Assembly: GCA_051294905.1 (NCBI GenBank)
Contig: CM119373.1
Location: 37,572,001 to 37,636,000 of the forward strand
Reading direction: 5' to 3'
DNA: 64,000 bases
From: Botryllus schlosseri
Lineage: Eukaryota
The notes below the pieces were generated by a model. It worked only from the letters and a program-made list of their open reading frames with translations. It searched no databases and was not told where the DNA came from. The position numbers and the translations under genes are program-made. Shown here one piece after another: positions 1,317 to 21,884 of this stretch. The number at the start of each line of letters is the position of its first letter. Within the stretch, counting starts at the first letter, position 1.

Positions 1317-1604
1317 TCACGCCGACGTATGAATGTATTGACTGTTATTGACCAGACCCACTTGTGTATCGTTTGCTAAATCAGTTCCATCACGTTTAGT
1401 GAGCTTCAAACGTAATCTCAAGAATGTGTTTTGTAGATCCATATATCGATCCGTCCTTGGTAATTGTACTTCCATGACATTACCTAAACTATTGGGTTTG
1501 ACGACGACATATTGCGATTCTTCAATACTGGTTTGTGTGTGGGGTATACTAAATATGTTTAATCCGGAGTTATGACATTCTCGGGAACCCGCATGCATCA
1601 ACAT
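1317..1604 (-). pseudogene. MCP: Major capsid protein (double jelly-roll, PY) N-terminal ~87 aa, truncated by element breakpoint
   Basis: EC..SGLNIFSIPHTQTSIEE...YMDLQNTFLRLRLKLTKRDGT...VGLVNN matches the recalled Polinton MCP N-terminus; frame runs into host sequence and stops 8 codons later. Confidence 0.85.
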
Positions 1605-1609
1605 AGTTC

Positions 1610-1981
1610 TTAGTCGAATATATCCTGTTGTTTACGACGACGTTTGGATGAAGTGTTTTTTGACTTTGTTTTTTTCCTTTTTATAGCTTTTGGGGTTAAA
1701 ATTTTATCAATCACTCGACCGCCAGCTTGTTTACTTCTCTTGACAACACTAGACTTGATCGAGTTACCCCGTAATAGATCTCTCGCTATTTCACCTCCAG
1801 TCCGTAACAATTGACCGCCAGCGTATTTCGCAATAGGTGTCACTAAACGACCGAGTGATTTAAACAAACTCCCGATGCCGGATCCGGCTTGAACTCCACC
1901 ACTGAAATATCCATAACCATCACCTGTCTGGTTATAATGACGATGGACAGAATGATGGTCACACGTGAAAACAACTTTCAT
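1610..1981 (-). CDS. Basic virion core/membrane-lytic protein (PZ/cupiennin-like position between minor and major capsid genes), 123 aa
   Basis: QxGxG motifs followed by amphipathic GIGSLFKSLGRLVTPIAK, then K/R-rich tail; syntenic position as in animal Mavericks; family name assigned from recall, not search. Confidence 0.65.
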   Translation of the reverse strand: MKVVFTCDHHSVHRHYNQTGDGYGYFSGGVQAGSGIGSLFKSLGRLVTPIAKYAGGQLLRTGGEIARDLLRGNSIKSSVVKRSKQAGGRVIDKILTPKAIKRKKTKSKNTSSKRRRKQQDIFD

Positions 1982-2373
1982 AATCGCTTCCTAATGTTAA
2001 ATGTAGCTTGCAATGAACGACTTATTATATTTATAGGTTCCCCAAACTCATCCCTGAGGTAAAGACATACAGAATCTACAACATCTTTCGAAACAGGGAA
2101 ATAATACGGATTTGTCGCTATCCAATTATGTGCGACATCGCCAGGTGTCAGCGGTATAACTCGTAATAAACGCGCTAACGTATCTCCAAGTAAGTGAGGG
2201 TGAATAATATCACAATACACAAACAAATATTGACCAATCGCCGGTTCGGTTAAAGTGAAATCGATCTCCATGAGGGCTAATTCGCAATATCTCGTCGGGA
2301 TGTTGTTGATGGTGAGTAGTCTGTGTTCAAAATCAGCACCAAGCATAGAGGTGGTTAACGTCACTATTTTCAT
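1978..2373 (-). CDS. mCP: Minor capsid protein (penton-like single jelly-roll) paralog 3, minimal 131 aa
   Basis: ELALMEIDF...YLFVYCDII...GDTLARLLRV...PYYFPV...LRDEFG motifs shared with the two upstream paralogs. Confidence 0.75.
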   Translation of the reverse strand: MKIVTLTTSMLGADFEHRLLTINNIPTRYCELALMEIDFTLTEPAIGQYLFVYCDIIHPHLLGDTLARLLRVIPLTPGDVAHNWIATNPYYFPVSKDVVDSVCLYLRDEFGEPINIISRSLQATFNIRKRL

Positions 2374-3041
2374 CGCGCGTGGAGTGTCAATGTGGTCTCT
2401 ATATCATGTACTAACTGACCGTATTGGTCCCTGATGGTGATTTTTATATCGCGGATGTGGTTAATCGACACTGGGAAATAGAACGGTTTTTCAAATACAA
2501 CTTCTTGTCTCGTACACGTCTCGTTATTTACTTGGATCACACGAAGCAATTGACTCATGTAATCACCCACCGGATGATGTCGTAGTACATTGATATACAC
2601 AAATAGATATCTGAGGTGGGGTTGAGTTGGTTTAGATTTGATCGACGTGACATTACATACTGGTGTCGACACTTGATCAACTACACTGAAATAATTTGTG
2701 AATATATCCGTGGGGTGGAGTGTGATACGTTTCGGGTAACGAATTCGGAAAAGTTCATCGTTGATTCTTTCGGTGAAACAGTGTTTGAAACTTTCAGATA
2801 ATATTCTTCGCATCAACTCGAGGTTGTTTGCATAATTCCCAAGTGGTGTTAGGTACGCTTCTACTATTCGATCTTTCTCATTATGTAGCTCCCAGAGTGC
2901 TTGATCACGATTGATTATAATTCGATCAAGAGATTCACTGACAAAACTCATATCCATCAACGCAAGCTCATTACAAATAATTTCATTCGGTAACACCACC
3001 GAGAATTCACCCTGGGTGCCAGACAACGTGATGTAACTCAT
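2370..3041 (-). CDS. mCP: Minor capsid protein paralog 2, 223 aa
   Basis: ELALMDMSF...YLFVY...VGDYMSQLLRV...KPFYFPV...IRDQYG...LTLH. Confidence 0.8.
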   Translation of the reverse strand: MSYITLSGTQGEFSVVLPNEIICNELALMDMSFVSESLDRIIINRDQALWELHNEKDRIVEAYLTPLGNYANNLELMRRILSESFKHCFTERINDELFRIRYPKRITLHPTDIFTNYFSVVDQVSTPVCNVTSIKSKPTQPHLRYLFVYINVLRHHPVGDYMSQLLRVIQVNNETCTRQEVVFEKPFYFPVSINHIRDIKITIRDQYGQLVHDIETTLTLHAR

Positions 3042-3868
3042 ATTGAATCAACAGCTCTACGACGGAAGCGTAGGGTTACTGCCACTGGTGCTTTTCGAAA
3101 TTTAATGGGGTTGCCAGCTGCATCACGTAGATAAATTCGTATCGTTCTAAAATTGTTTCTCGCTAAAGCAAAGAAGTATGGTTTTGGGAATATGTTGATT
3201 TGGTTTTCATTCGGTTTAGCGGTTACAGTAACCACCCGTAAAAGTTGTTGCAGTTTGTTACCGTGTGGCCTTGGTTGTATCAGATCGCAATACACATAAA
3301 CCTTATCAATCCGTTCCAACTTTATCGCAGGTGTAAATATAAATTCTACCACTCCGCGGCGACGAGATACAACGCGTCTAAATGTTATTGTATCCAACAC
3401 AGAACCAAGTGGTATCAATCCGTAAGGTTCGGGTGAATCATGTGTGGTACGGGGTACGCGTCTGGCGCTAGAGTCTGCGGTGTCGGTATTTATGGGTACA
3501 CCCTGCTTGGGTCTTTTTTTACTCGTAACTAATCTTCTGAATGTGATTCTAAAGTCACCGAATCCTTGTAAAATGAAAATGTCCCCCATGTAATATTTCT
3601 CGTACGATTCTAACATTTCACCGATGTTGTAATACGAGCCTTCGGGAATATAATACTGTTCGGTGTATCCATTCGCATCGACAAATCCAAAACCGATACT
3701 TTTCGCTGTCACTTCAATTCGCGGCTGAAAATCATGGGGGAAGGTCAGCTCACATAATCCTAGCTCATGGCGATTCATTTCTAATTCTTTATAAAGTTCC
3801 GTTTGAAAATCTGTGCTAGTATTCGGAAATTTATCCAAACTCGCATTCGAAGGTAGAGTCAACAACAT
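3038..3868 (-). CDS. mCP: Minor capsid protein (PX/penton) paralog 1, ~276 aa from ATG at 3868
   Basis: Canonical TLPSNAS..FPN...F N-terminus, ELGLCELTFP, VYVYCDLI..G...LLRV, PYFF, LRDAAG; ORF track extends it upstream to 3925 but homology starts at MLLTLPSN. Confidence 0.85.
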   Translation of the reverse strand: MLLTLPSNASLDKFPNTSTDFQTELYKELEMNRHELGLCELTFPHDFQPRIEVTAKSIGFGFVDANGYTEQYYIPEGSYYNIGEMLESYEKYYMGDIFILQGFGDFRITFRRLVTSKKRPKQGVPINTDTADSSARRVPRTTHDSPEPYGLIPLGSVLDTITFRRVVSRRRGVVEFIFTPAIKLERIDKVYVYCDLIQPRPHGNKLQQLLRVVTVTAKPNENQINIFPKPYFFALARNNFRTIRIYLRDAAGNPIKFRKAPVAVTLRFRRRAVDSI

Positions 3869-4115: not shown

Positions 4116-4124
4116 TTTCAGAGT

Positions 4125-5195
4125 CTATTTATACAAATCCGAGACCCAAGAATTAAATTTAGACGGATAACCCAACCATTTTACAAGATATTGCGTTTTC
4201 TTTCCTTTCCTGCGAGTAGACAGGATTTTTTCGATATTGTAAATATTATTATTTTTAGTTATTGGTTGTAACTCTTCACGCTGAAAGCGACCGTCTATAA
4301 CTTCACCATGGTAGTCTTTCAATTGATAAGTAGGAGGGTCACCTTTACGACATTGAGATACGAAAAAGATTTCTTCGGTCCAACTCGCCAAGGCACTTTT
4401 TACAAAATTACCACGTGATTTCGAAATCCTGACGGGTGTACCTATAGCTAGTTTGGGTTTTTTAGGGGTCATGTCAACGTATAACCTATGGAAAATTTGT
4501 TCTTGATTCGAATAATTAACATCCGCTGGAGGACACCCTATAGCAACGTGAAAAGTAGTGTTATACCCCCGGCATATCTCAGACAGGACACTGACATAAT
4601 TCAAAGTCTTATTATGCGTGAAATAACGGTATAACACTTGCTTCAGAGTACGAATAACACGCTCGCATATCGATGCTTTCAGTTCACTATTTGTATGAAA
4701 ATGTCGCACATTGTTCTCTTTTAAGAAAGTCTGAAACGCACGATTAGTAAACTCAGAACCTTGATCACTTTGAATAACATGAGGTATACGATTCTTAAAT
4801 ATTTCCTTGAATCCGCGAATAATACCTTGCGAGGTTTTGTTTTTGAGTGGATACAGATATAAAAATCGACTGAAACAATCGATCGTCACCAACACATATT
4901 CAAAATTATCGTTTTCTTTTGAAAGATTTTGCATATGCATGAGATCGGTTTGATACTGAACACCGAGACCGGACGTAATCACTCTAGGTCTCTTAAATTT
5001 CTTTCGATAGGGAAAATGTTTTGTGTACGCATCCTTGCTCGAAAGAAACTCCTTGACTTTGGCTCTATTCCGCCCTCTAGAGAATACGTATGCACCGCGG
5101 TAACTACCAGGTAGCCCTGGTGTGAAATACTTAGTATGGCTCCCATCCGTATCGTCTCGGGGTCTTGGGTGTACGACCACTTTTCGTCTTGGCAT
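4125..5195 (-). CDS. int: Retroviral-like DDE integrase (c-integrase) with C-terminal chromodomain, 356 aa
   Basis: QYQTDL (D), QSDQGSEF (D), ICERVIRTLK (E); chromodomain YNIEKIL...YLVKWLGYPSKFNSWV. Confidence 0.95.
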   Translation of the reverse strand: MPRRKVVVHPRPRDDTDGSHTKYFTPGLPGSYRGAYVFSRGRNRAKVKEFLSSKDAYTKHFPYRKKFKRPRVITSGLGVQYQTDLMHMQNLSKENDNFEYVLVTIDCFSRFLYLYPLKNKTSQGIIRGFKEIFKNRIPHVIQSDQGSEFTNRAFQTFLKENNVRHFHTNSELKASICERVIRTLKQVLYRYFTHNKTLNYVSVLSEICRGYNTTFHVAIGCPPADVNYSNQEQIFHRLYVDMTPKKPKLAIGTPVRISKSRGNFVKSALASWTEEIFFVSQCRKGDPPTYQLKDYHGEVIDGRFQREELQPITKNNNIYNIEKILSTRRKGKKTQYLVKWLGYPSKFNSWVSDLYK

Positions 5196-5526: not shown

Positions 5527-5870
5527 TTTTTGAAAAGATTACCGAGTAAACCAGTGACGACGGGTAGGATGCTTGATAATAGAGTCATAAACATACCCCC
5601 ATTCTGATTAACCATACGTTTTTTATGTCGAATAGGGATGTCTTTCCTGACAAGTCGACGTAAACTACATTTATGAGCTGATAGTCGCTTTCTTTTATAC
5701 TTTGAAAGAGGGATGTTGCCGTTTAAAATGTTCTTTGTACAATCGCATATACACTCGATCAATTCTTTGCTGGCTCCCGATATAATTTGCTTGCGTATCT
5801 CGGGTTTACTTTTATGTAGGAACTCTAGTGTGGGTATATGCCGCCGTGTCCGAGCTGGTACCTTGGTCAT
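5523..5870 (-). CDS. Basic PW-like protein with C-terminal amphipathic helix, 115 aa
   Basis: RKQIISGASKELIECICDCTKNILNGNIPL...QNGGMFMTLLSSILP pattern recalled from Maverick genes adjacent to the ATPase. Confidence 0.7.
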   Translation of the reverse strand: MTKVPARTRRHIPTLEFLHKSKPEIRKQIISGASKELIECICDCTKNILNGNIPLSKYKRKRLSAHKCSLRRLVRKDIPIRHKKRMVNQNGGMFMTLLSSILPVVTGLLGNLFKK

Positions 5871-5895
5871 TTTGAGTTTAAAGTCGTCTCCGCGC

Positions 5896-5908
5896 TTGGC
5901 TATTTATA
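5896..5908 (-). promoter_or_regulatory. TATA-box motif TATAAATAGCCAA upstream of PW-like gene
   Basis: ~26-38 nt upstream of ATG 5870; identical 13-mer at 13184-13196. Confidence 0.55.
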
Positions 5909-6515
5909 CCATCGGGCTATAAACCACCATGGTTTCACCAGGAAATATATTGGTCATAACTCGTCGATTTTCAGGTGCTTCTTGCGTGAGATCGAGGAAT
6001 AAATAACTATGAGGTTGTCTAGCAGCGTCACGATAAGCCTCTGTTAAAAATCTAGAGTTTGGGTACATTTGTCGACCAAGAAAACTGATCTGTTGTTGGT
6101 CGCGCGGATTCTTGAAAATCACCATATACGAGCTTGAAAGACTCAAGTCACGTGCTCCTTTACCCTTGTGATACAGGTTCTGCGTGATATAGCAAATTGA
6201 CTTGGCTGAATGATGAGAAAATCTTGTAAAGTAGTCTGCAATTTTCGCGGTCTCAGTCATGAAATCATCCACTATAATCAAGGTATCTTCAGAGCAAACC
6301 TTCAACTCTTCTAAAATATCTAGACCGACGTGGAATTCTACATTATGCATCGTCTTGAAAACCTCCTGATAATTATTGTAACAATATACGACCCTGGATA
6401 CACTAGGTTTAATCATTGATGTCGCATGCCTAATCAGCTTTGCAACAAAAGTAGTCTTCCCACTTCTTGAAGGACCACTCACAATACACGCGAATGGGTG
6501 AATCAATTCCATCAT
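5904..6515 (-). CDS. ATPase: A32-like FtsK-HerA DNA packaging ATPase, 203 aa
   Basis: Walker A GPSRSGKT, Walker B LIIVDD, ITQNLY, YLFLD motifs. Confidence 0.95.
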   Translation of the reverse strand: MMELIHPFACIVSGPSRSGKTTFVAKLIRHATSMIKPSVSRVVYCYNNYQEVFKTMHNVEFHVGLDILEELKVCSEDTLIIVDDFMTETAKIADYFTRFSHHSAKSICYITQNLYHKGKGARDLSLSSSYMVIFKNPRDQQQISFLGRQMYPNSRFLTEAYRDAARQPHSYLFLDLTQEAPENRRVMTNIFPGETMVVYSPMV

Positions 6516-6557: not shown

Positions 6558-7026
6558 TCAACAAGGTTGGGAATATCCACTGTTGTAGTCATCTTGTTCT
6601 AGTGGAATATATAAACCCGGTAGAGTTCGATTTAACAATTTTCCCCGGGTTATGAAATCTTCATCTGTCCCTCGTAATTTCGTCAGTGGAAGTTGTAGTG
6701 TTACAAACGCTTTATTAAGGTTGTCAAGCAGCTGATCCCAATCTGCAAAATGAAAAATCGCATAAGAGGATTCATAACACGAGAGGATTCATAGCGCTTT
6801 AAAATCTAACAGTGTTACTATAACAACTATAGATCTCACCTTTTAAACACTCTTTTAAATCTTTATGTTGTGTCGATACGCGTTGTTCGTATAATTCATG
6901 CGATATCTCTCGATTCAAATACAGCTCCACGAAGTGTACATGATCGCGGCGTTGTACAAGTGTCTTTTCGTGTAACCGAGTCAGACCTGCTTGTTCCAGA
7001 AAAGCTATTATGTAATCACTAGCCAT
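6558..7026 (-). CDS. Two-exon hypothetical protein, 123 aa (exon1 7026-6840, exon2 6742-6558)
   Basis: Acceptor tttttacag|ATG at 7026; donor AAG|GTGAGA at 6840/6839; acceptor ttttgcag| at 6743; phases match and give an open frame ending ...YSQPC*; exon2 not in the ORF track. Confidence 0.7.
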
Positions 7027-7178
7027 CTGTAAAAACAAGACACAGATATCAGAAAATATTGTTACTAAAATGTTTCCATTACAAGTTGACATTTCGAAAA
7101 CACCCACAGATTGTAAACAAAGTTTCACCTAAAACTATCAGTGTTCACCGCAGATTATGTTCACAATGACCAAGAGAA

Positions 7179-7673
7179 TCATGTTTGCAAAAAATCATCG
7201 GTTGTAGCAGCACTACTTTCAGAGTCAGAACGAGGTCGTTTCAAACTGTTTGCGACTCTATGTTGATCAAGGAAAAATTGGAATTTTCGATGTCGCTTGC
7301 GGGTTCTCAAGTAGGCTTGTCTCTCTTCGTGACCGAAAAGCGGTATCCACGAACAATTTTTTCCCAAGACCACATAATTTGTCAGCTTTGCTCTGTTGAA
7401 TAGGATGTGGTTATCACTCGGCATCTTTCGATCAGGAAATTGTAGTTGAAGTAGCGCTTCTATGCAGACACTTCGGACACGGGTCCATTTCTCGTCTAGT
7501 TCCTGACGGCGCGCCTTGGATCGATCGGGTATCGTGCGGTCTTGTGAGTTGTCGTCGGTACCGTGAATCGAGAGCTGTGTTAATTCCTGCTCCAGTTCAA
7601 GCGTCTCTTTGTGCAAACTATTTAAATCCAATTCTGACATTACTGACTCAATATATGAAATAGCGTTATCCAT
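7179..7673 (-). CDS. Hypothetical protein, 164 aa from ATG 7673; paralog of 6558-7026
   Basis: Acceptor tttgttttccag|ATG; gap-free motif spacing shared with 6558-7026 protein. Confidence 0.7.
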   Translation of the reverse strand: MDNAISYIESVMSELDLNSLHKETLELEQELTQLSIHGTDDNSQDRTIPDRSKARRQELDEKWTRVRSVCIEALLQLQFPDRKMPSDNHILFNRAKLTNYVVLGKNCSWIPLFGHEERQAYLRTRKRHRKFQFFLDQHRVANSLKRPRSDSESSAATTDDFLQT

Positions 7674-7786
7674 CTGGAAAACAAATGACACATCAACACA
7701 TAAAAAATACAACTAAATCATAATAATAGCAGACACACAGATAAAATACAATAGCACACAAAATATACAATTACGTCACAATGGTA

Positions 7787-10700
7787 TTACACATTCAATG
7801 GCAGGGTTGACACACCATCCTCGAGCACTCGGCGTTTGGCATAGAAATAGGAAAATGTTTTACGCTGTTGTTTGTACGTATAGACACCCCTATCTCTGCA
7901 CCGAAACCCCTTGTTCACTCCCCCGACAGATTGCCTAGATGTCAAGACACCCAGAAAAGTTTCGAAATCGACTGGGTTGGATTTCTGGAGGCCTTTGGAA
8001 GCTAATTTTTTCTTTGGTCCATCACAAAAGTAATTTTTGGATTGGAGCCCACAGAAGGATGTACCACCTTCGTACTCCACTTTCATCAAACCCGGTTGAC
8101 GAAGGTAATACGCATACGTGTCTTTACAACACTGTCTCGATCGGTCAAAAGAAACCGGATCAGCCAAAAACTCAGTTCGGTGCTCGTCACAAAAATAGCG
8201 TGGAAACCAGTTCTCGTATTCCACATAAAATTCATCTCTTTTCTCGGGGATAAGGATATCGTCGAATGAGGCTGAGTGCGAAAGATAGAGAGAGTCCGTG
8301 TCCATCATTAATAGCATGAAGCACTCGTCACGGAAATATTTACACAAGCAGTCATAAAAAAACGAGAGCATCTTAAGCTTAGCATTGTTATAAACCCAGA
8401 ACCCCACTTGAATACAGTTACCCCACTTGATCGTTTTAGGTCGCTTCGTTACTTCAAATAGATCAGCGTTCAATTCATCATATTTCACAAAAAAGCGATC
8501 CTCAACATTGCCATCCAATTCACTTTTATCACAGTAGGTGGTTCGTTTGAATTTACGTGGATTCATCAAGACCCGGCCATAGCTGCTATTTCCGGCTAAT
8601 TTTTGCGTCAGGGCAATGATCTCTAGGCTAGGGTCACGATCTCCAGCACGTCGACAATCCGAGACATTTTTCGCGAAGGTGTCAAAACATGTCTTTTTGG
8701 TGAATTCGACCGCCTCATGAATTTTGGATATAATCAATCCGTGTTCAACATACCACTTGATCAAGTCGGAGGTCAACAAGATTTTCTTACCCCAGTATGA
8801 AGCAACTAACATGCGCGTGGGTTTGGTGAGTAATTTGCGATCAATGGCGAACTGTTTCATTTGACCTGACAAATGCTCGCGAGACACCATTGTATTTTTG
8901 AATATCGGACATAGTTCAACAAACTTCCTTTGCAAATGTTTTGGTGTAAAAATATCGACTGATAAACATCCAAAGAATGTACCGGTCATTACCATCTCCA
9001 TCAATTTATGCGCGGTGACAGACTTGGTTCGAGTCAATTGCGATTGAATTCCATCAAGATATCGCACAATATCAGGATTTTCCTGTTTCTCCGTGCGCCA
9101 GTCGCATTCCCATTTACATATGACTTGATAATTGAGGCTTTTGTAATAATCATGAACACGTTTAGTTCGTTCTCGACGTTCCAAGTCATCACAACCAAAT
9201 CTGCATTGATGCGCGTGAAAATGACACCCAAGAAAAGACAAGATTACCCCTTGACCAGCCGAATTACGATAGAACCCATCAGCGGGGTAATTACGGGCTC
9301 CTACGCGGATTTCAGGTCCATTAAAAGCATGGTGGACATGTACATTGTGAATATATGAATACCAGTTTAGCCATTGAGCTGCTGTCTCCCCCCATTTCGG
9401 TGCGGTCTTGACAGGTTTGAATTTAGTACACTCAGCATCGAGTGGTTGCCAATGTACCGGGAAACCAGTTGGACTAGGTTCACTCAAAGCAAAAAGGTAT
9501 AACGAATTGCTGTCCAGCCCTGTTACATGTTGGGTGATCTGAGCGTTTTCCTTATGAAAAAATTCTTTGATTCGAGTTTCACCCTGTTTTTGATATCGAT
9601 GGAAAATGACCGACGGCCCACCCACTAAATTGTCTCTGAATAGTGAAACCAGGTCTTGGTGTTTATCATTGAACAAGGTGAAATCGCGTGGGATGCTATT
9701 GAAAAGATGCCTCGATACAACCCCGGGTAGGGAGACAGCTTCTTTGAATATATCCACACTGAATTGACTTTTGAAAGATTGAAATTGTTTTTCTAACCCC
9801 TCAATGAAGTAGTGAGTATCGATTGCGTTGTACCATTTGAGATAATCACGTAAGGTTGTCATTTTGTTATCGTTCCAAACCTTCAAACAGTTTTCATATT
9901 CAGCTGTGGATATATTACGATCTTCTAGTGAGCTGTAAAAGTCGCTGTGGCTAGGAAGACTCGGATAATCTAACTTTTCCAAACTAGTCAGAAACTCGTA
10001 CGGAAAATGACCTTTAGCGGCGCTACATTTGAAGGCTTTCAAATAAGCATCGTACGAGAACCCGGGTGCCAAGTAATTTACAATGTCCAAAAATTTAAGT
10101 CTGTTAGTTGTCAACGAGAGGAAGTTGTTACCTCGTTTCAATACATTCAGATTTTCATCAACGAGTAAACCCATCAAGTACTCTTTGAGACAGTTCAAGT
10201 CATACCGACCACCATTGAACGATAAAACAGGGATTTGTTTTAAATATCGCATAAACTCCTCTTGTAAACGTTCAAGAGGTATTTTTCTTTCGGAAGGATC
10301 GAGCGCTCTCATTTCGGTAATTTTAGTTTCGAGCATGTCCAAGTAGTGTTGATATTCCGTCAGTAACAATCTGAATGACTCACTTTGAATATCATGAAAA
10401 TGATCAACCATTTCCGCACACAAGTCATTTGGGTCACCGTTCGAGACAATTACATACGGCTCCAAGAACCCTTCCACATTAGAAGAGATGCTAACCGAAA
10501 TGGGAATATGTTTACACTCCCATGAAGTTTTGGAGGAATCTGGAATATCACACTTTTCAAACATGCTCTCTATGTCGAACGCGATACGGTATTTGAAATA
10601 ACGAAGCTGGTGAGGAACAAACACCCCTTCTAAATCAAGCTTTTCAAAGATGTTCAGAGGAGGTGTATACACGCCACCTGGAAACACTTCAACGACACCC

Positions 10701-11629
10701 GTTGTACATTTGTGTCTGGTCAATTCATACTGTTCGTTAAATAATCGTAGACAAACATCACATTTATAGGTCTCTATATACCGCCTCATGTCAGTAATGA
10801 GACAGAAGTGTGCATTTTCTAAATGTAGGTACACAGGTTTCCCTTCAAACGTACTACGTCGGAGAGCGCTAGCTTTACCCTCTGTCTTGGTGTACACGAT
10901 TATAGCAACATTAAACAAATCCTCGATATCGTCCAACATGTCAAGAGTTACACCAGATTCTACATTGATCCCACAAACCGAAGTGAATTGTTGAGCCAAT
11001 GCTTTGGCATCTTTGCCCAGTGAGTGGGCGATGCAACGAAAAGCGCACAGATTGTCCTTGTACAGATGTCGATTGGGTCGACTTAACATTGTCAAGATGC
11101 ATTTCGATTTTGTAAGCCATGTCGGTAGCTTAATACCAGCACAACCAATCAGTAAATGACCCGTAGGGTATACATAAAACTGGACATTGGTCAGACAGAC
11201 TGGCAGTGACTTTGTATCTACTCGAGAGTTTTGTAACAAATCAAGTGCGGTTTCCAAGCGAATAGATTCAACAAATTCATCGAATTCAGGTAGTGTTGAA
11301 ATTAGCGCCGGTGTTTCTAATACACTATCGATGTTTGCCGAAGCATGAAAATACCGAAATCTCAGAGTCTCAGTGTGATATAAAATGAAGGCATGTGCGT
11401 AGTTCACTTTAAAGGTATGTGACTCGGAGAAAAATATCGCTTGGATATCGCGGTAAACATCCGTTAGCTCACGATCGATAACTCGAATATTATACACATG
11501 ACTGGTCTTTTTCACTACATACGATTTTATCGCTTGCCAGTTCTGATTTACAACTTCTTGGCGTTCGTCACCGATCTCTGGTGGTGCATTCTCTTCTTCG
11601 CGAACACGATTCCGTCTGCGTCGACTCAT
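7787..11629 (-). CDS. pPolB: Protein-primed family B DNA polymerase, ~1280 aa from ATG 11629
   Basis: Exo I AFDIES, Exo II FNGGRYD, Exo III YNAIDT, motif A DSNSLY, motif B KLAGNSSYG, motif C MDTDS; no internal stops; acceptor ttttacag| abuts ATG. Confidence 0.97.
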   Translation of the reverse strand: MSRRRRNRVREEENAPPEIGDERQEVVNQNWQAIKSYVVKKTSHVYNIRVIDRELTDVYRDIQAIFFSESHTFKVNYAHAFILYHTETLRFRYFHASANIDSVLETPALISTLPEFDEFVESIRLETALDLLQNSRVDTKSLPVCLTNVQFYVYPTGHLLIGCAGIKLPTWLTKSKCILTMLSRPNRHLYKDNLCAFRCIAHSLGKDAKALAQQFTSVCGINVESGVTLDMLDDIEDLFNVAIIVYTKTEGKASALRRSTFEGKPVYLHLENAHFCLITDMRRYIETYKCDVCLRLFNEQYELTRHKCTTGVVEVFPGGVYTPPLNIFEKLDLEGVFVPHQLRYFKYRIAFDIESMFEKCDIPDSSKTSWECKHIPISVSISSNVEGFLEPYVIVSNGDPNDLCAEMVDHFHDIQSESFRLLLTEYQHYLDMLETKITEMRALDPSERKIPLERLQEEFMRYLKQIPVLSFNGGRYDLNCLKEYLMGLLVDENLNVLKRGNNFLSLTTNRLKFLDIVNYLAPGFSYDAYLKAFKCSAAKGHFPYEFLTSLEKLDYPSLPSHSDFYSSLEDRNISTAEYENCLKVWNDNKMTTLRDYLKWYNAIDTHYFIEGLEKQFQSFKSQFSVDIFKEAVSLPGVVSRHLFNSIPRDFTLFNDKHQDLVSLFRDNLVGGPSVIFHRYQKQGETRIKEFFHKENAQITQHVTGLDSNSLYLFALSEPSPTGFPVHWQPLDAECTKFKPVKTAPKWGETAAQWLNWYSYIHNVHVHHAFNGPEIRVGARNYPADGFYRNSAGQGVILSFLGCHFHAHQCRFGCDDLERRERTKRVHDYYKSLNYQVICKWECDWRTEKQENPDIVRYLDGIQSQLTRTKSVTAHKLMEMVMTGTFFGCLSVDIFTPKHLQRKFVELCPIFKNTMVSREHLSGQMKQFAIDRKLLTKPTRMLVASYWGKKILLTSDLIKWYVEHGLIISKIHEAVEFTKKTCFDTFAKNVSDCRRAGDRDPSLEIIALTQKLAGNSSYGRVLMNPRKFKRTTYCDKSELDGNVEDRFFVKYDELNADLFEVTKRPKTIKWGNCIQVGFWVYNNAKLKMLSFFYDCLCKYFRDECFMLLMMDTDSLYLSHSASFDDILIPEKRDEFYVEYENWFPRYFCDEHRTEFLADPVSFDRSRQCCKDTYAYYLRQPGLMKVEYEGGTSFCGLQSKNYFCDGPKKKLASKGLQKSNPVDFETFLGVLTSRQSVGGVNKGFRCRDRGVYTYKQQRKTFSYFYAKRRVLEDGVSTLPLNV

Positions 11630-12150
11630 CTGTAAAATTAATAACATGCGGTCAAATTCAGCACTTGGGGAACATTAAACTAGTCTTACTTACATTCTAG
11701 TTTCTTCGCCGGTGTCTTCCTGGATTCTTTATGCTTAATAAAACAAGCAACACATCATACTATGTTCGCTAACATAGTGTTGTAGCAGATAACTTACCAG
11801 TAGACTCGTGTTTTCAACTTGAGTTTGCTCCGTCTGTCAACAACATAGAGAATTACATCATGTTCACTAGTTCTGAACAGCAATAACTTACCTATGCAAT
11901 TCTTTACTTCAATTTCGATGCTTGTTTTGGCTGTAGGATAAACGAATAACATATTATATTCATAAATCAAAGTAGTCATACCGAATAACTTACTAATTAA
12001 CTCCTTATCCAGCGATCCGCGTTCGAATATACCCAGACAGTCAGTCACGTTGTTCGCTGCTCGACACCCGGAGAGAAAGACCTAAACCGCTGATTCGAGA
12101 TTACAAGAGCGCCAGCACCACTAGTGGTTGCGCTTTTAGAATCTATTGTT
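11630..12150 (-). other. Putative multipartite non-coding 5' leader of pPolB (introns 11931-11993, 11834-11891, 11734-11797, 11630-11693; micro-exons 11892-11930, 11798-11833, 11694-11733)
   Basis: Four GTAAGT donors each paired with a pyrimidine-rich (Y/T)AG acceptor 58-64 nt away; exons lack ATG, every intron contains ATG. Confidence 0.7.
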
Positions 12151-12225
12151 TATTTATGGCTCTAATGTAAAATCTGAAACGGAAAACAGAAATTGAGAAT
12201 AGACACTCACAACAATGAAAATTAT

Positions 12226-13107
12226 TCAGCACAAATTATACTTCAATTTCGTTCTAATTTCTAGAAGTCGATGCAAGTACTCATTGGTTGCGGTATTTAA
12301 TTCAGGTTGAATCTCATCAAGACTCCAACGCTGACCCTTGACAGTGAGCAATCGTTTGATGTCAGCCATGAGCTTTGCGACAGTCAAATTTTTTTTCTCC
12401 GTCAACGAATCAACATAACATAGTATTGAACCTAAATGCGGCTTAACAACGTCAATAGTCTGAAGGTAGGTGACCATCTTGTCAACTGTGTATTGACATA
12501 ACTTTTCTTCCTGCTTCTTTTTTCCCTTCACGTCGTCGCGAAAATCATCGTCACTCGCGCTTTTAGATTTCACAGGTTTCTTACCAACCTTCTGTCTGGG
12601 TTCGGTACGATTCAAATTTTTCGATTTCCCATTACGAAGCTGTTTAGCCGGTGGTATGCCCACCGTTGTCGATATGGTTCTTTTTCGAGTTGGCTTGCCG
12701 GTTGATACAGATTTAGGAGTATCAGTCACCGATAGCGACTCCGCGGGGCGCGGTATCGTCATCCCAGAAGTCGACGGTTTCTCGGGATTCGGTAATTCGT
12801 TGCTAACGGCTGTCTCGTCGGTCGGTACACACGGTATCGTCACCAAGTTCGTGAGATCGTTAATCGCGCTTTCTCTAGCTAGTTGACCCGACTTCAACCA
12901 CGCCTGGCGCGCTATATCTGTATAGTTTGACTGCATTTCGATCGTTGCCGTAAGGTCGCGTTCTGCGGATTCTACTCTTAAATCCGACGTCATCAGATCA
13001 CCAGGATTAATCGCATCAAAGATATCCGCGTTCTCTTCAAATTGTGATTCGAATGCATTTGGTTCATAACCAAATTTATCAAGATTATCTATCTGAACCT
13101 CGGTCAT
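12226..13107 (-). CDS. Hypothetical Maverick protein, 293 aa (acidic N-terminus, S/T/P and basic linker, helical C-terminus)
   Basis: Long intact ORF with upstream TATAAATAGCCAA; no recognisable domain. Confidence 0.7.
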   Translation of the reverse strand: MTEVQIDNLDKFGYEPNAFESQFEENADIFDAINPGDLMTSDLRVESAERDLTATIEMQSNYTDIARQAWLKSGQLARESAINDLTNLVTIPCVPTDETAVSNELPNPEKPSTSGMTIPRPAESLSVTDTPKSVSTGKPTRKRTISTTVGIPPAKQLRNGKSKNLNRTEPRQKVGKKPVKSKSASDDDFRDDVKGKKKQEEKLCQYTVDKMVTYLQTIDVVKPHLGSILCYVDSLTEKKNLTVAKLMADIKRLLTVKGQRWSLDEIQPELNTATNEYLHRLLEIRTKLKYNLC

Positions 13108-13183
13108 TGTACAATAATTAATCTAACTGCTCCAACCAACGTTTATGTCTGCGACAGCGAAGTATAACAATCAGATCGCGGTG

Positions 13184-13196
13184 TTGGCTATTTATA
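13184..13196 (-). promoter_or_regulatory. TATA-box motif TATAAATAGCCAA upstream of 293-aa ORF
   Basis: Identical 13-mer to 5896-5908. Confidence 0.55.
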
Positions 13197-13201
13197 GATT
13201 T

Positions 13202-13289
13202 AATTCGATAGTAGCACGCGGCCGGATGGAAAATAATTCGGCGCGCAGGTCATTCGAAATATAGGCCGCACGCACACTGCGTAATCCTC
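13202..13289 (+). repeat. ~88-bp direct repeat, copy 1
   Basis: cgatagtagcac...cgcaggtcattcgaaatatagg.cgcacgcac...tgcgtaa.tcctc also at 15013-15098. Confidence 0.85.
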
Positions 13290-13570
13290 AGAACCGATCG
13301 CGTTTCCTAATTTCAGAACCGGACGTATTTAGTGTGTCACACAGGTCAAAACGCGGTCGCGGACATCTGTTTTTTCAAAATCGCACAGCGCACTGCGCTT
13401 TAGTGAATTTCCTGTTTAGCGAAACGGGCGATTTTATTGCGCCACACATGTCAAACGCACCCGCCAACATCTGTTTTTTCGAAATCTGAGCGGTGTATTT
13501 CACCATTTTAACACATTGTGGTGTCATTCTCATGGTTTACTTTTTCAGTTGATTGTTACATATACTCGTT

Positions 13571-13924
13571 ATGGCAACTAGCGCGATTATTGAGAATTAC
13601 CTTCTCTACTATCATAACTTGACAACCCCCATATTGAGCGAAACGGAAAAATTCATCCACGGAGTACTAGATTTCTATGTACATGGAGAAAACGTGAGCC
13701 GTGTTCGAAAGTGCGATTTTACCGCATTGGTTAACTCGATTCGATCATACGGCATCGACTGGAATGGGGTTTTTAGTGTCATAAGCATTGCGGCGATGAA
13801 AAGTGACATACGCACCCTAGCGGTGTACAGAGATTTAGCAACAGACATCTTGAATACTCACTACAGTACATTGATAAGTGACTGGGTACGAAGAAAATTC
13901 ATTCGTGTCGTTTGTCGCTTGTGA
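13571..13924 (+). CDS. Candidate Bcl-2-fold protein, 117 aa
   Basis: F.ALVNS.RSYGIDW.GVFSVIS aligns without gaps to BH1 ([23 protein letters not shown] of Bcl-xL); ISDWV resembles BH2; ATG 13571 follows acceptor tttttcag at 13548. Confidence 0.45.
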   Translation: MATSAIIENYLLYYHNLTTPILSETEKFIHGVLDFYVHGENVSRVRKCDFTALVNSIRSYGIDWNGVFSVISIAAMKSDIRTLAVYRDLATDILNTHYSTLISDWVRRKFIRVVCRL

Positions 13925-14086
13925 ACGGTATCATTTCTTACAGAACTCCTGTAAAGTTTATTTCAATCCAAGTCTATTCACGCGGGTCATCAGGATTATA
14001 CAAAGACTGTTAACTCACTCAATACCACGCACCTAATTCTATAAATATCGACGGATTTGTTGATGACTCTCACTTTATCAAACGAT

Positions 14087-14698
14087 ATGACATCGAACAG
14101 CGTCAGCAGTATGCAAGTCGGAGCAGTTTCAAATTTTCACGTCGGTGTCAAATTCGTCTCATCGCCCAAAAGAGGTGGCGTTAGTCAATATCTCAAAGGT
14201 ATATTCATCGACGGCAATAACGAAGAGATATCTTTCACGTGTTTCAATCGTGAATTGTTCGGGATCATTGAGAAAGCATTCTCCAAACGAAAAAAACTCA
14301 TGGTCAAATCCGGTTGGGTCCAAATTGACAAGTTTACTGGAAAACCTGCTGTATTACTGGGACGGGCTTCGTCAGTAACTCTGCATGGAAAATCGAGACA
14401 TACGACTGAAGAATACCCATTATTGACCTGTGAATCAGTATACGGAAATAAAGATGAATACGTCTCGATCGCCGCTACTTGTGTTTCTGGAGAGGAGAAG
14501 ACGGTCAATTCTGATGCCGGAAAGGAGTTGAAATTATACAGTTTTACATTGAAGGATGATACTGGTGAGGTGGTTTTGGACCAATGGAACAAAGCCTCGC
14601 TCGTACCCGGGAAGAAATATCAACTCACTCGTGTTAAAAACTGTGTCGGCAGCTTGAAAATCGATTCGTTAACTGGACTTGTTGAATTGAAAGAATAG
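14087..14698 (+). CDS. Tandem OB-fold, RPA/SSB-like single-stranded DNA-binding protein, ~203 aa
   Basis: C-half KTVNSDAGKELKLYSFTLKDDTGEVVLDQW...GKKYQL is an RPA-type OB signature; N-half has a similar FIDGNNEEISFTCF strand pattern; TATAAATA at 14040-14047. Confidence 0.6.
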   Translation: MTSNSVSSMQVGAVSNFHVGVKFVSSPKRGGVSQYLKGIFIDGNNEEISFTCFNRELFGIIEKAFSKRKKLMVKSGWVQIDKFTGKPAVLLGRASSVTLHGKSRHTTEEYPLLTCESVYGNKDEYVSIAATCVSGEEKTVNSDAGKELKLYSFTLKDDTGEVVLDQWNKASLVPGKKYQLTRVKNCVGSLKIDSLTGLVELKE

Positions 14699-15012
14699 TT
14701 TGCATATTTGTATACCACAATACAATATTTCATTTCGCGTAAAATGTATGACCTATGTGATTCGACAACTGGGTTAGCGCGGTGTTGTTCTACTGATCGA
14801 GGTGTGAAAATTGTACTATCGCGATGAAGTTGCGACTGTGAACAGCAGATTATTTTGTAGGTGCGAAACAGCGAATAAGCCGAAAGTATTATTCAGCTAG
14901 CGATCAATAGCGAGGAAAGAGAACACGATCGGTCATTTGACACGACTAAACTACGACATCATATATCATAATTTACGATCAAACTATTTCGCACTGAATG
15001 GAATAGTGTAAT

Positions 15013-15098
15013 AATCGATAGTAGCACACAGCTGCATGAGAAACAATTCCGCACGCAGGTCATTCGAAATATAGGTCGCACGCACTGCGTAAATCCTC
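15013..15098 (+). repeat. ~86-bp direct repeat, copy 2
   Basis: See 13202-13289. Confidence 0.85.
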
Positions 15099-15180
15099 TT
15101 GCAAGCCACGTTTCCGTTTGTGCGGTTATTGCTGGTGACTCGTACATATTCAACACCGCACGAGAGATGGCTGAAAGTAC

Positions 15181-15487
15181 GAATCACGACCGCACCCATA
15201 AGAACACATGGCGAATCACCACAGAACCCGTAAGAATACACGACAGGCGAATCGCCGCCACCGCCTATAGCAAAAAAGGCGAGTCACGACCACGAGTTTT
15301 CACGGCGAATCACCGCCACCGCCTATAGCAAAAAAGGCGAGTCACGACCGCACCCATAAGAACACATGGCGAATCGCGGCCCAGAGGAGGGTCTAAAAAG
15401 GCGAATCGCCACCCCGGGTTTCCAGGCGAATCGCCACCCCACCCATTAGAAACCTATGGCGCATCACGACCGATCTACATAACTACT
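15181..15487. repeat. Maverick terminal region: subterminal tandem repeats and terminal ACTACT
   Basis: cacgaccgcacccataagaacacatggcgaatc x2, gccaccgcctatagcaaaaaaggcgagtcacgacc x2, many ggcgaatc cores; ends ACTACT at 15487. Confidence 0.75.
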
Positions 15488-16175
15488 GCCGGTATATTTC
15501 GAACGTCTCTATTTGTAATTAATCCCAAATATTTTCTTTCAGCATTGCTTTCTACTGGTTGGAATTAAGCCAAATTTAAGTTATTTTAGATAATCTAACA
15601 ATTTTAAGAAGTAGCCTCTTTTTTGAGATTCTGTCCTCATTTTTGGGAATTTGTTTTGGTAAATGTAGGGCAAATTCGACTAAGACAACAGTAAATCAGC
15701 ACTAAAGTAACGCTCCGGCGACTATTTCGGCAGCTGAGCAGGTAAGTTGACGTTTTTTCTGGTCAACCACCTGATATGATGTGAAAGCAAAACTGTACCT
15801 CTACATAAGCGTTTATCTGTTGATTCTTTACCAGCTTGTATCTAGCTAGACGTGATTTCGTAGGTTCTCTATGAGATAGTATGTAGACCTGATTCGTTTA
15901 TTCTCTATAAGCTATTTGTGAGCGGTCGTCGATGTGCTCGTAATAAAAACTGAATGCTTTTATTTGTGAAATATCAGACTGACAAGACAGATATTTGATT
16001 TAAAGTTCTAAGATTAGTAACGTTATTGTATTGGCGGCCTGTCTCGTCTATCTGTAGCATCGGTATATGAGGCCAGGAACTGCCTGTTATCTGCCTAACT
16101 AAATAAACTTGTGCCAACACTATGATAGGGAGAAAATAAGCATGTTTGGCAAGCAAGGAATTCGATATCACCCAA

Positions 16176-16399: not shown

Positions 16400-19300
16400 A
16401 TAGTTTGAAGTGTTCTAGTTTATTTCATGTCCAAGCCTATTGCAATGGCTGCAAAGCTGATCGAATAAATGTTCTCAGGAATTTGAAATACGTGATACGC
16501 TACATTACGTATTTCTTTAAATGTCTGTTGAATACATCAGGGTTATCAGTATTGGCCTTCAGTGAAACAATATCACACAACGCTAATCTGCAACAGATAG
16601 AATATTGATCATTTCTTATAAGGTACTGGTGTCCAGACGTAGTCTTTCTAGTTTATTTCACGCTCAAGCATTACAACGGCTGTAAAGCCATCTAAATAAC
16701 TCTTCTGACGGCGCATCAAGCTAAATTTCATGTTTTGGGGAATGTAGGTTATATATATATTTGCTGATTTTTCACTTAAAGTGCTAGTTATGTACGTAAC
16801 CGCCTCAAAAACGTGACGTGACACCGGTCAGGCCCTAGTCAAGCTCCGCGTAAAATATCGAATGTCGGGTATTGAAGACAGATATAAAAAGTCCGAAACG
16901 GTCTGAAATCACGCGCTGCAAGCATCGCTGGTCACAAAATGCGTACCGCGCCCGGAAAACGCAGACTTACCGGTCCGCGAAAACCAGAAAACAAATAGGC
17001 TCGACCGATTGTCCTCGGCTTTTACAAAATCGGGTAGAAAAAAACAGGCGGGCCACGCATTAAAAATAACCAAAACGTCGCAAACACAGTGATGATTCAG
17101 CCGGTGGGTGCGTGGGGTCGTCATGCATCATGTTGTTGCATAACCCGGGTGGGTGAGACTGGCAGACAATTACCAAAGAATTCCAACTTCTATATACATT
17201 CGGAAAACGACAAAAATCATCCTTTTTAACTCATACGTAATGCAGCAAAGCCCGTGATGTCAAGTATGGGCAGAAGAACGCATATTTTCACCCGAGAGAT
17301 GGTAAGCGGGCGGAAAAAGGGGGGCGAAATTCGCAGCAGCCCCCCGATTTCAAATCGGCAGCAGCAGCTGAGAATTGTTATAACATCACAGCAGGTTATC
17401 ATCATCGAGCAGAGATTTTCGGGAAAAGCGCAAGGTCGTAGAAATCAAACACAGATTTTCATGTCGAAACAAAAATCGCGTCATATCCACGATGTCTCGG
17501 GGCCGGCCGTTGTTACAAAAAACGGTCTATTGTCGGGTAATATTTGCAGCTTTATGCCAAAAAAACATGGCAACAAAATAGTTTAGGGTTTTCACAACAG
17601 AAACAGTCGATATACGATCATTTTTCACAAAATCCAGGTCGACATTTTCAAACTTTTCCACATTTCTCCCGATTACGAAAAGACCCCAAAATATCTTCCT
17701 GGGGGAGTGGGGGCCTTTTTTGGAAGGCACCATCAATTTGTCATTGCTACGTCGCAAATTATTTTGCGGGAGACAAAAGTCATTGTTTCAACCAACAATG
17801 GTGGGTTCAGGGGTGCTTCTTTTTAGACATGGTCGTGGTCTTGTCATTGTTACGTGAAAAGTTTGCTTGTCTGAGACACAAAAGCGATTGTTTTTTTGAC
17901 AATAGCGTCATTTACAGGTTCAAGTGGGCAACTTTCATTGTATGGAGATTGTTACCTTTTTTCAAGGTGTGATCCTTGTCTGCTGCAGAAATTTTTTTTG
18001 TTCAAACACAGCATTTGTATTAACGTGGGGCAAAGGTGGGTGCCCCGACTACATCTCGTTAAGAGGTATCGTGACAGTTTCCCCTTTCCTGGGCCTGGTC
18101 TCGGCCAACGTCAGTTTCTTGATCTCGACCTCGTCAGACTTTGATTTGTTGGCAGCAGGCGATGTTGGAGAGGGGGGCCGGGGAGGTTCCGGTTGAGCGG
18201 GCAAATTCAAACTCTCGTCGGCCATCGGCTGTTGCTCGGAGACCTCGAACTTTCCGAAAGCCTTGTTCGATTGGCTGCTCCTGTGGGCGGCATTCTTGCT
18301 CGCTTTGGATCGACGGCCGGGTCTCGGCCGGTTCACCTCGTCCTCGGTCTGGGTGAATATCAGTAATATGTAAAGGGAATAAAGTTTTACTAAAAAAAAA
18401 TTTAGTTGCTCGACTCTGTTTCGTTCCTTAGTGCGCAGGTTTGACGGGGCAGCCAGTAGGGTAACCATGATAGTTATTGCCAGCCATTATAGCGGACGCG
18501 CTAAATCAAATAAGCGACGATAGCGATATCAGATGTCAATATGACCTATTTCGCATACAAATGATTCCCGCTAATTGGCAGTACGCGGCATCGATGATAC
18601 GAATTAGTGAATTGGCATTTCCACAGGACGGGATTTCTAGTTTTAAATGTGAGTCTCCCTGGCTACACACCTAGGGTTTTAATACCGACAACGAGCTGCT
18701 AAATATCAACCTGGGGCCTACGATCCTCGATATGGTTGCGCCCGATAGAGTCAGTCCAGCAATGAAGTCTATACAATATACATAGAACATAGGCACACAC
18801 AAACACTGTCCTATTTTCGCTCCAATTAAAGAGACAATCACGAAACTAACTCGTGAATTATTTTAAATCCTTGAATATTTAGTTGTATTAAGTTAATTGG
18901 CCTTCATTAGATACTAATTAGTGCTAATTACAGGTTGAAAGCTGCATGAGTAACTCGGCGCCTATGACTCTGGACATGATTAACCCAAAACAAATACGGA
19001 AATTATCCATACAGCAAGAAAAACACAATACTTGATCACCCTGCACTCTGGCATTTCCAGGATATGAAGCAAAATTATGACTCAGACCCACCATTTTCCT
19101 CGGGTCTCGTGCTTCTTTTGGCTTCCCGTCTTGAAAGAAATATTGCACAGACGACAAAAGGCTGAGTCGACCCTCGGACTGGGACTCCTAAAACAAAACA
19201 CATGCAGATTCATCCTCGACCCCGAATTATTACCCCGTTTTCACCCACCTTCACTTTCTCCATGGGTATAAACTGGCTTTTCTTGGGAGCCTCCCCTGTC

Positions 19301-19888
19301 TTGTGTGCACCACGAACCAGTGATGAGACCGGGGGTACTTTCTGGGGGCCGACACGCCGACAGTGGGTGAACTGACTTTGAGTTGTTGAGCCCCGGGTTG
19401 GAATTCTGCCCCGAAAGATGGTTGGGGTGCTGGAATAGAAACGGGGTCATTTTAGGGTTCTCAGAGTCTAGACTCAAATAGATATTTCTTTAAATACGGA
19501 AAATGACTCAAAACATCTCCTTACATACAGAAAGGGGTCAGACTCACCCTGGTTCGGCTGCTGCATCCGTTGGGGTCGAAACGGGGGCCTGTTCGGGCCA
19601 TCTGCTGTTGCTGAGTCATCGGCTGGTAAGACTAGGGCACGAAGTGTTGTTGGGGCATCTGCATACTGGGATTCTGCTTGCCCATCATGTCCAGCGGAGG
19701 CCTGACTAGCCCCATCTGTTGTTGCGGGGCCATCTTGTTGCTGCCCCACTGCATCATGTTTCTCGGCCCCATGTTGGGGTTGAAGGACATCTGATTGTCG
19801 GAGGTTCTCGATGGGAGGAACCCGCTCGATTGCGGGCCTCGTAACGTTTGGTTCATATCGCCTGGAATAGCAGTAAAGACGGAATTAA
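16400..19888. repeat. Segmental duplication copy 1 (paralogous to 28385-32946)
   Basis: Near-colinear high similarity over ~3.5 kb, e.g. matching ORF-track entries 16872/28900, 17254/28900, 18049/30078. Confidence 0.95.
18049..19861 (-). pseudogene. Gln/Pro-rich gene copy C (last four exons only)
   Basis: Same exons as 30078-32919; premature TAG at 19632 (CAG in copy A) and 1-nt deletion in G-run near 19345; homology ends at ~19888. Confidence 0.75.
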
Positions 19889-21884
19889 CCCGATCGAAAC
19901 GGCACACTCATTAATGATACATGAGCGTATTTTCACGAACACGCTTTACTTAATCCAAAATTTCCTGGGTTGTTCTGGTCGTAGACAATTACAACTATTA
20001 CCGATAGATAGCTATTATCAATACGCATACGTCGAGCCATAAATAACATCTTATACTATACTTATATACTATACTTATACTATCGAATAGCCTGTTCAAA
20101 ATGCAGATTGAATACATAAAAACGTTTTGCGCAAAACACAATTCGCCACGACGTTCGCGTGAATGTGCGCGCGTGAGATAAACCAGCGCCCGTGACCTAA
20201 ATCAGCGCATCTCCGAGACATCAAATTCATTTGCAGATCTTTTCTCCTAACATGTGTTGGTTATGCCCATAGCCCATCTATTGGAATACTTATAATCAAA
20301 AATTAGTCGCACAGAAGATTCTTCGAACTGGAAGTAAAAATATGTTACGAAATAACATGCGCGGGTTTTAGCAATGTATTTTCTGTTGCTGTTGAAGATT
20401 ACGCATATTGAATATTTTTGCTAGTTATACTAATACACCAATACTGCCATGATGTTCTTCTGCGAGCTACAAGATCTCCGCTATTGATATGACAGCAAAT
20501 TTATGTCCGTAAATGGCTTCACTTCTGGTGGAAATGTTTCACGTCTTTCCCGTAGTAACGAGTAAAAAGAAATGCAAAGCTCCGGTCGCGATTCTGGTAT
20601 TGAAAGGTATTTTCGTGTCTACTCGAGATTTCCGTTCACAACGCGCAGGTCATTTATGAAAATTTGACGACCAGCAAAGCCAGGCATCAAATCCCGGTTC
20701 CATCTAATCAATGCACTTTCTTGATTCAAGGTATTTTATTCGTCCATGATTCACGAGAGAGGCAAGAGAATTCGGCGTAACTCTGTCAAAGCAGTTGACC
20801 TATTATCATTGCAGTGTGGGCAACGAATATAATTGCAATAACTTCAGTTGCCAATGCTATAATGGTTTCTTACGTTTTCCCATGTGTTGGTGGTAGATGT
20901 ACTGGCTTGTTATTATTTCGATTTGCTGTTGTATTACACGTGTGATGCATTATTTCATATATTGTGTCACGCGACTCGACATGTCATTGCTACATATGCC
21001 GATATGCATAGCCTACCTGATATACTATACGACAGTCTCACTATTGCGCTGTTCGGCTTAGAGAGGCAATAAATGTCCGTGTTCCGTTTGTTAGTGTTAG
21101 ATGTGGTTTGTTGTTATCTGTCATTTCAACCACTAAATATTCAGTTCTAGTTGTTGTACAGCAGCGAGGTTCGTTTCAGCACATACTACTATCTCGTACA
21201 AAGGATGGATAGGCGATTACATGGCGTTATGAAATGAATCATTTGAACGTCCGCGATACTGTGTTATCTTCATTCTAGACATGTTTTCTTGTTGTGTTGT
21301 GGCAGTAACTATCTAGCAAAGAGGGATATTTATGGTATTTACGTTAATAATAAGATATAGAAATTGATGTTATATCAGCATTACACTCATAGGTGGTCAA
21401 AGTAATCGAGAATGCTACTCAAGTAGAAGTAGTACTGTTAAAAGCAACCTACACATATTTCAGGTCGAATTAAATTTGGCTGACTTGAAATCTAGCCAAG
21501 TATGTAAGTAGTTGTGAAAACAGTCATGTACGTTCGCATGTACTGTAAAATTTAGCAAATTTAGCTCTGTGGAATGTGCAGAGAGCTCGATTAATAGTAA
21601 TGCATTCCAGAAGGTATAAATCTTCGACAGCATCAGCATTCGACCGCATCATGGGATGCAAATGATTATTTTGCTACGGAAAAGCAAAACTAATCTTTTT
21701 TTACTCGAATACCATGTTTGAGAAAAAGTCATAGCACGACGCTCTTTCCCGGTATGATAAATACCATATACTGTTGTTAATTTCCGTAAAAGAGAGTCAA
21801 TACATGCACCTGATTTTAAAATTGGCTTTGCTTAACGTCTATGAAAATAAATTCTTTTTGGCTGGCACTGCGTGAAAGCAGCCC

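Follow-up and report, generated by a model that had tools for sequence, protein, structure and literature searches.

Does the Maverick/Polinton element on contig CM119373.1 of Botryllus schlosseri (assembly GCA_051294905.1) encode a Bcl-2-like protein? The question is raised by a small open reading frame (ORF) of 117 amino acids, here designated ORF117, in the 64,000 nucleotides between positions 37,572,001 and 37,636,000 of the forward strand (hereafter the window, to which all coordinates refer), which a first-pass annotation had read as a viral Bcl-2-like apoptosis modulator. The proposed gene is an exact ATG-to-stop frame on the plus strand (Table 1), and the remaining five frames across its span each contain between four and eleven stops. 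A Bcl-2-like fold is slightly favoured for the product, which would most likely serve as a soluble host-defence antagonist resembling poxvirus N1. The part of the earlier identification that stands is a resemblance beyond single-comparison chance, to which a Bcl-2 homology 4 (BH4) motif, the order of the motifs, the spacing of two tryptophans and a hydrophobic helix of the central type can be added, while the part that does not is confirmation, which no standard method provided.

The resemblance is most pronounced at BH1. The gapless BH1 alignment of the first-pass annotation was reproduced with six of 23 positions identical (F, V, N, G, W and S, each at its original offset) against the Bcl-xL string quoted there, and the motif tests were run on fetched Bcl-2 proteins. 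Against five of these, residues 50-72 (FTALVNSIRSYGIDWNGVFSVIS) align in ungapped register with three to five identities, and both MAFFT and hhalign select this register unprompted. The 23-residue match to P0012 was reached by 0/2,000 shuffles and 0/111 natural sequence windows, and that to P0004 by 2/2,000 and 0/111, respectively, while the match to P0005 was not significant (89/2,000 shuffles and 4/111 natural windows as high). Scored alone, BH1 was equalled in none of 628 natural windows, with a p value of ~1e-4 when the tryptophans were held fixed. Towards the amino terminus, the stretch IIENYL fits the aliphatic-aliphatic-X-X-aromatic-aliphatic pattern given for BH4 in passages of PMC3847314, and all six residues (I6-I7-E8-N9-Y10-L11) are invariant in P0001, the sole homologue. 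The BH2-like segment includes LISDWVRR (residues 101-108); alone, it is equalled by 2/628 natural windows (p 0.047 with tryptophans fixed), and the xxNGGW that should follow is missing. Its W105 and the W64 of BH1 are the only two tryptophans of ORF117 and lie 41 residues apart, a spacing which, among the 116 fetched Bcl-2 proteins that fit the two motifs, is 44 in 115 and 42 in one.

The best motif positions (BH4 at 3, BH1 at 50 and BH2 at 97) follow the order BH4, (BH3), BH1, BH2 set out in PMC7022251. A chain score, for which BH4 must precede BH1 and BH2 must follow 38-48 residues on, amounted to 49.7 for ORF117, as compared to a maximum of 39.1 among 628 windows from 138 natural ORFs, from which ORFs with a scanned motif had been excluded (0/628 as high), and was reached by 0/1,000 shuffles. 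In a look-elsewhere control, five Bcl-2 templates (seven were tried and two were dropped, the motif expressions not matching them) gave z values of 5.2-6.4, while 0/5,616 overlapping pseudo-templates reached 5 (maximum 4.69). Local alignment with seven cellular Bcl-2 proteins scored 41-46, values matched by one or two of 326 natural windows. The Bcl-2-like signal comes from the alpha4 helix and from the turn that precedes W64. ORF117 bears an ordered Bcl-2 resemblance beyond single-comparison chance, although one that is method-dependent and below the threshold of standard tools. An alternative register, in which residues 39-50 were set against the Bcl-2 alpha2/alpha3 junction, was dropped since P0001 does not conserve these residues.

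Several observations weigh against a Bcl-2 assignment. BH4 alone is weak, with 46/628 natural windows scoring as high and a p value of 0.15 with both tryptophans fixed. At the NWGR position ORF117 reads G-I-D-W-N-G rather than G-V-N-W-G-R, so that the invariant Gly-Arg of BH1 is absent, and the motif had rightly been called degenerate (DWNG). BH3 (Leu-x3-[GAS]-Asp) was not detected in ORF117, its best match being equalled by 211/628 windows; passages of PMC3847314 and PMC7022251 describe this motif as optional in pro-survival members. Local alignment with three herpesviral-type Bcl-2 proteins scored at background level (25-29). The chain score is also window-dependent, with z ranging from 2.6 to 5.8 across eight settings and the median template z reached by 0-17/900 pseudo-templates, and the first windows were picked after the match had already been seen. 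Furthermore, vertebrate Bcl-2 predominated among the motif templates, as did bacterial protein, with no selection for helices, in the natural null. Because of the post-hoc windows and the mostly bacterial null, a realistic per-family p value lies between 1e-4 and 2e-2. Profile comparison, which the first-pass annotation had proposed as a check, failed to support the assignment. Two viral Bcl-2 controls, obtained by motif scan, matched PF00452 in a Pfam search in which ORF117 matched no family at E<=10. A Bcl-2 hidden Markov model (HMM) built from 120 relatives, the best of 581 and almost exclusively vertebrate Bcl-2, scored ORF117 at -1.0 bits (165/2,000 shuffles as high), ORF117 ranked only 91st with the full and 36th with the core HMM among 1,230 segments of the window, and hhalign returned a probability of 0.2-0.3% (E 0.19-0.32).

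Sequence searches with ORF117 against NCBIfam, PHROGs and the PDB returned nothing meaningful, and the ESM Atlas no usable match; the rest of the window yielded no further Bcl-2-like segment (best E 1.2 and 0.17). Divergent viral Bcl-2 members likewise lack sequence similarity according to passages of PMC3847314, and the Pfam result therefore lowers the case for PF00452 membership rather than that for the fold. The HMMs miss ORF117 because its signal sits in alpha4 and the adjoining turn, while the most invariant residues of the family have been lost.

Structure prediction is compatible with the motif evidence at the level of helix layout. The AlphaFold (AF2) models have a mean predicted local distance difference test (pLDDT) score of 49.1 (one sequence) and 52.7 (two sequences), values too low for a fold call. 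Both low-confidence models are all-helical, in agreement with the earlier prediction, and interrupt the helices at the BH1 turn and again ahead of the BH2-like helix; this layout and the hydropathy are compatible with a bundle around a central hydrophobic alpha5. Searches of the PDB with Foldseek and of BFVD, and VIA-align, named no Bcl-2 protein among the matches listed for either model, a negative that does not amount to exclusion as many BFVD matches, including one top match, are unnamed. The absence of a carboxy-terminal anchor was borne out, with 19-residue hydropathy at or below 0.31 for windows starting at residues 91-99 and a basic carboxy terminus; N1, A52 and B14 also lack a membrane anchor in the description of PMC3847314, as available in part.

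We regard ORF117 as a true accessory gene in a Maverick family, because of a protein-level homologue and gap-free copies that are ~86% identical. The homologue, P0001 (51 amino acids), shares 58% identity with residues 3-47 (E 2.4e-8, full HMMER search), the comparison being confined to the amino-terminal 47 residues of ORF117; 13 of the 15 residues at positions 6-20 are identical, the start sites are similarly placed, and conservation is closest in alpha1 and the loop that follows. Among the 24 assembly pieces listed, three lying within ORF117 (175-228 nt) differ from it at 23-32 positions with zero gaps. A decayed or incidental frame, carried as a remnant without present function in a recent high-copy family, is accordingly a poor candidate, and the matching start of P0001, the gap-free diverged pieces and the lack of any indel in ORF117 among the 12 rows listed all speak against it, as does an acceptor-like upstream signal resembling those of other non-structural genes. 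That signal, in which a run of pyrimidines leads up to a CAG, lies 22 nt before the ATG, and an in-frame stop at 13550 precludes a 5' extension of the frame. Such decay would, however, suit the broken left end of this copy, an Atlas recognition score of 2213, below the 2300 typical of known families (although the score is not diagnostic of a real gene), and the two non-synonymous changes (with two synonymous) among the four substitutions listed relative to other copies. It would also suit the contig joints (~13412-13421 to 13964; five joint rows in one run) that remove ORF117 cleanly, and because of these the gene is dispensable for some element copies.

Further searches for relatives were less productive. 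The other two of the three HMMER matches (P0002 and P0003) were discarded as summed weak matches to tandem-repeat proteins; a word-index search gave no match and a two-sequence profile search P0001 alone. No ORF117 homologue was found in metagenome contigs or in viral contigs, where part of pPolB likewise had none. A degenerate scan for the amino-terminal motif gave at least 118 stretches, none of those listed being extended past the motif by tblastn. There is no second ORF117 copy in the 64-kb window, and the literature search found no paper on ORF117 or its family.

The more serious competitor, given a substantial though smaller share of belief than the Bcl-2-like fold, is that ORF117, while a genuine accessory gene, encodes a small helical protein of unrelated fold, such as a CID/VHS-like fold or a HEAT-like right-handed stack, which would act as an adaptor in transcription or replication of the element. 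The Bcl-2 likeness would then stem from two tryptophans and amphipathic periodicity. The silent profile searches and the null without helix selection leave room for this explanation; with both tryptophans held fixed, the motif sum was reached by 0/20,000 shuffles. Of the favoured Bcl-2-like reading, we infer the fold, the early timing of expression, the location and each step of the function; it would run as follows. The protein would adopt a minimal soluble Bcl-2 fold comprising alpha1/BH4 (residues 3-17), a short loop, alpha2 (24-39), a very short alpha3, alpha4 (47-58), a BH1-type turn leading into a buried hydrophobic alpha5 (64-76), alpha6 (80-96) and a BH2-like terminal helix (101-115), with no membrane anchor and with the canonical NWGR contact lost, as in vaccinia N1. 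It would act from the cytosol early in the replication cycle of the element and damp a cell-death or innate-signalling response of the host by one of two routes: BH3 helices would be bound in a non-canonical groove, or an alpha1/alpha6 face would serve for dimerisation or for binding a partner. The conservation of alpha1 and its loop in P0001 would fit such a dimer or partner face. A bolder version, in which ORF117 would be among the smallest Bcl-2 folds and would have been repurposed, separately from the poxviral proteins, as a groove-independent antagonist of innate immunity or cell death that uses the conserved alpha1 face, is considered unlikely. On that version it would belong to a separate, highly diverged Bcl-2 lineage, and lasting selection on these elements for control of host cell death would be implied.

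Table 1. Features of ORF117 and of the element that carries it (window coordinates).
Feature	Position	Strand	Evidence or remark
ORF117, candidate minimal Bcl-2-like protein, 117 aa	13571..13924	+	ATG-to-stop frame, homologue P0001, gap-free diverged assembly pieces
Pyrimidine tract ending in CAG, putative splice acceptor	13537..13548	+	sequence; 22 nt upstream of ORF117 ATG
IIENYL, BH4-like, residues 6-11, in predicted helix 3-17	13586..13603	+	fits aliphatic-aliphatic-X-X-aromatic-aliphatic
alpha4-BH1-alpha5-like segment, residues 50-72	13718..13786	+	p ~1e-4, W-fixed shuffles
Uncharged hydrophobic helix, candidate buried central alpha5, residues 64-76	13760..13798	+	mean hydropathy 1.48, helix in both models
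End of alpha6-like helix and BH2-like W105, residues 93-108	13847..13894	+	41 residues past W64
SSB/OB-fold-like gene, next to ORF117	14063..14698	+	weak NCBIfam SSB matches (E 0.0011, 0.0025), far below cut-off
85-bp direct repeat, copy 1	13205..13289		85% identical to 15015-15098
85-bp direct repeat, copy 2	15015..15098		with copy 1, brackets ORF117 and SSB cassette
Repeat-rich right end of element	15180..15487		terminates in ACTACT at 15482-15487
pPolB	7787..11647	-	PF03175, E 5.3e-7
Packaging ATPase (A32-like)	5904..6515	-	Pox_A32 E 0.0074, below Pfam cut-off, and AAA matches
rve integrase with C-terminal chromodomain	4125..5195	-	PF00665 E 1.1e-15, PF00385 E 4.6e-9
Putative virion module	1317..3868	-	ORFs; no library match

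The element that hosts ORF117 is an adintovirus-type Maverick/Polinton of a high-copy family, represented here by a left-truncated copy. The Maverick setting put forward in the first-pass annotation holds because pPolB, an rve integrase with chromodomain and an A32-like ATPase were found, the last with a Pfam match below cut-off. The ORFs of the putative virion module presumably comprise three of minor-capsid type and one for a basic, core-protein-like product, and the element breaks off in what would be a remnant of the major capsid gene, its 5' 95 aa. Three successive minus-strand ORFs at 1978-3868 share similar carboxy-terminal motifs, without a Pfam match above cut-off, and are apparently a triplicated minor capsid (penton-like) gene. 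Leftward of the capsid remnant there is no AGTAGT, an inverted arm to match was likewise not found, and the copy is therefore considered truncated, while the right end carries the ACTACT motif described for Mavericks/Polintons in passages of PMC8097293.

ORF117 and the adjacent gene, which resembles a single-stranded DNA-binding protein (SSB) and has a TATA-like box ~23 nt upstream, form a plus-strand pair in the accessory region upstream of pPolB. Alongside the bracketing 85-bp repeats, joints from ~13265 to 15092 are seen in contigs, possibly true deletions, possibly artefacts of mapping. An 80-bp tandem duplication (13303-13382 and 13408-13486; 75% identical), non-coding and possibly regulatory, lies between the divergent genes. 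The region 12000-15500 is present in part in 20/24 listed runs, under four organism labels, and in three contig runs all 30 bins are covered, with depth, which is not copy number, climbing steeply toward the right end. Across 14012-15350 contig depth is ~10x higher over the SSB-like gene, and higher still over the terminal region, than over ORF117 and the core. This profile fits many short derivatives that retain the right end and the SSB-like gene without ORF117. A pyrimidine tract with CAG stands directly before ORF117 and a 164-aa ORF (region 6799-13924), and just inside the first codons of the pPolB ORF and of a 97-aa ORF, ahead of a second Met, while TATA-like boxes precede several virion-module genes (1317-6515) and the SSB-like gene (14063). 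The two kinds of upstream signal suggest that the non-structural genes use leader splicing, as adenoviruses do, or trans-splicing.

Elsewhere in the window, a fragment of a fibrinogen C-terminal domain (PF00147, E 8e-14; 1040-1240, plus strand), with a partial copy at 24637-24752, adjoins the broken left end of the Maverick. Two BEL/Pao long terminal repeat (LTR) retrotransposons have near-identical terminal repeats; the one at 57407-63306 contains a 1640-aa ORF with a 63-nt tandem array (61416-61919), and the shorter one at 36276-38564 is internally deleted, with a 418-aa ORF. A multi-kilobase duplication (16400-19900 and 28400-32950; 91-98% identity, ~12-13 kb spacing) is also present, the tested ORFs of which had no Pfam match.

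Among known viral Bcl-2-like proteins, adenovirus E1B-19K would offer a parallel, as an early accessory gene of a linear DNA virus encoding pPolB, but ORF117 matched no Pfam family at E<=10. With cellular and gammaherpesviral Bcl-2 (PF00452) ORF117 shares ordered BH4-, BH1- and BH2-like segments and a similar W-W distance (41 versus 44), but unlike these it lacks a Pfam match, NWGR, a detectable BH3, a long alpha1-alpha2 loop and a hydrophobic tail, and is at least 50 residues shorter. If ORF117 has a Bcl-2-like fold, its nearest functional analogue is vaccinia N1, of the poxviral group. This cytosolic 14 kDa protein has neither NWGR nor a membrane anchor and yet adopts a Bcl-2 fold (PMC2885619, PMC3847314), binds BH3 proteins and dimerises through alpha1/alpha6 (PMC2885619), while A52, B14 and K7 use the fold without a groove (PMC3847314). 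In the passages available of these papers, the alpha1/alpha6 face serves both dimerisation and signalling, and on their description ORF117 is likewise small, anchor-less, NWGR-less and short-looped. No sequence or structure match between ORF117 and N1, A52, B14 or K7 was obtained, however, and ORF117 keeps tryptophans at the BH1 and BH2 positions, whereas N1 has Ile at the BH1 tryptophan position. Any likeness would be convergent, since the virus lineages differ.

Within the element class itself, Starrett et al. (2021; PMC8502044) state, in the portions available, that homologues of Bcl2 and IAP were observed in adintoviruses, and 'Bcl2' occurs three times in the text of their map figure S2. 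Anti-apoptotic homologues are also mentioned for mammal-associated adintoviruses in passages of Buck et al. (PMC11071296), and Barreat and Katzourakis (PMC8097293) describe accessory regions flanking the core, the available passages not mentioning Bcl. Set beside the adintovirus Bcl2 homologues as described in PMC8502044, ORF117 shares their element class but is too divergent for Pfam. The novelty implied by the first-pass annotation is thus lower: Bcl2 homologues from this class of element are already in the published record, and a Bcl-2-like ORF117 would add no new principle. Nor does the 'true viral life cycle' that had been read into the gene follow from it, since a transposon also gains from a live host cell and the left part is missing from this copy; even a confirmed fold would not by itself show the formation of infectious particles. 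Should the fold be confirmed, the accessory gene repertoire of animal Mavericks would gain a very small, anchor-less and NWGR-less Bcl-2-like protein. Such a protein would parallel poxvirus N1, A52 and K7, and would provide a testable handle on how virus-like transposons manage host cell death.
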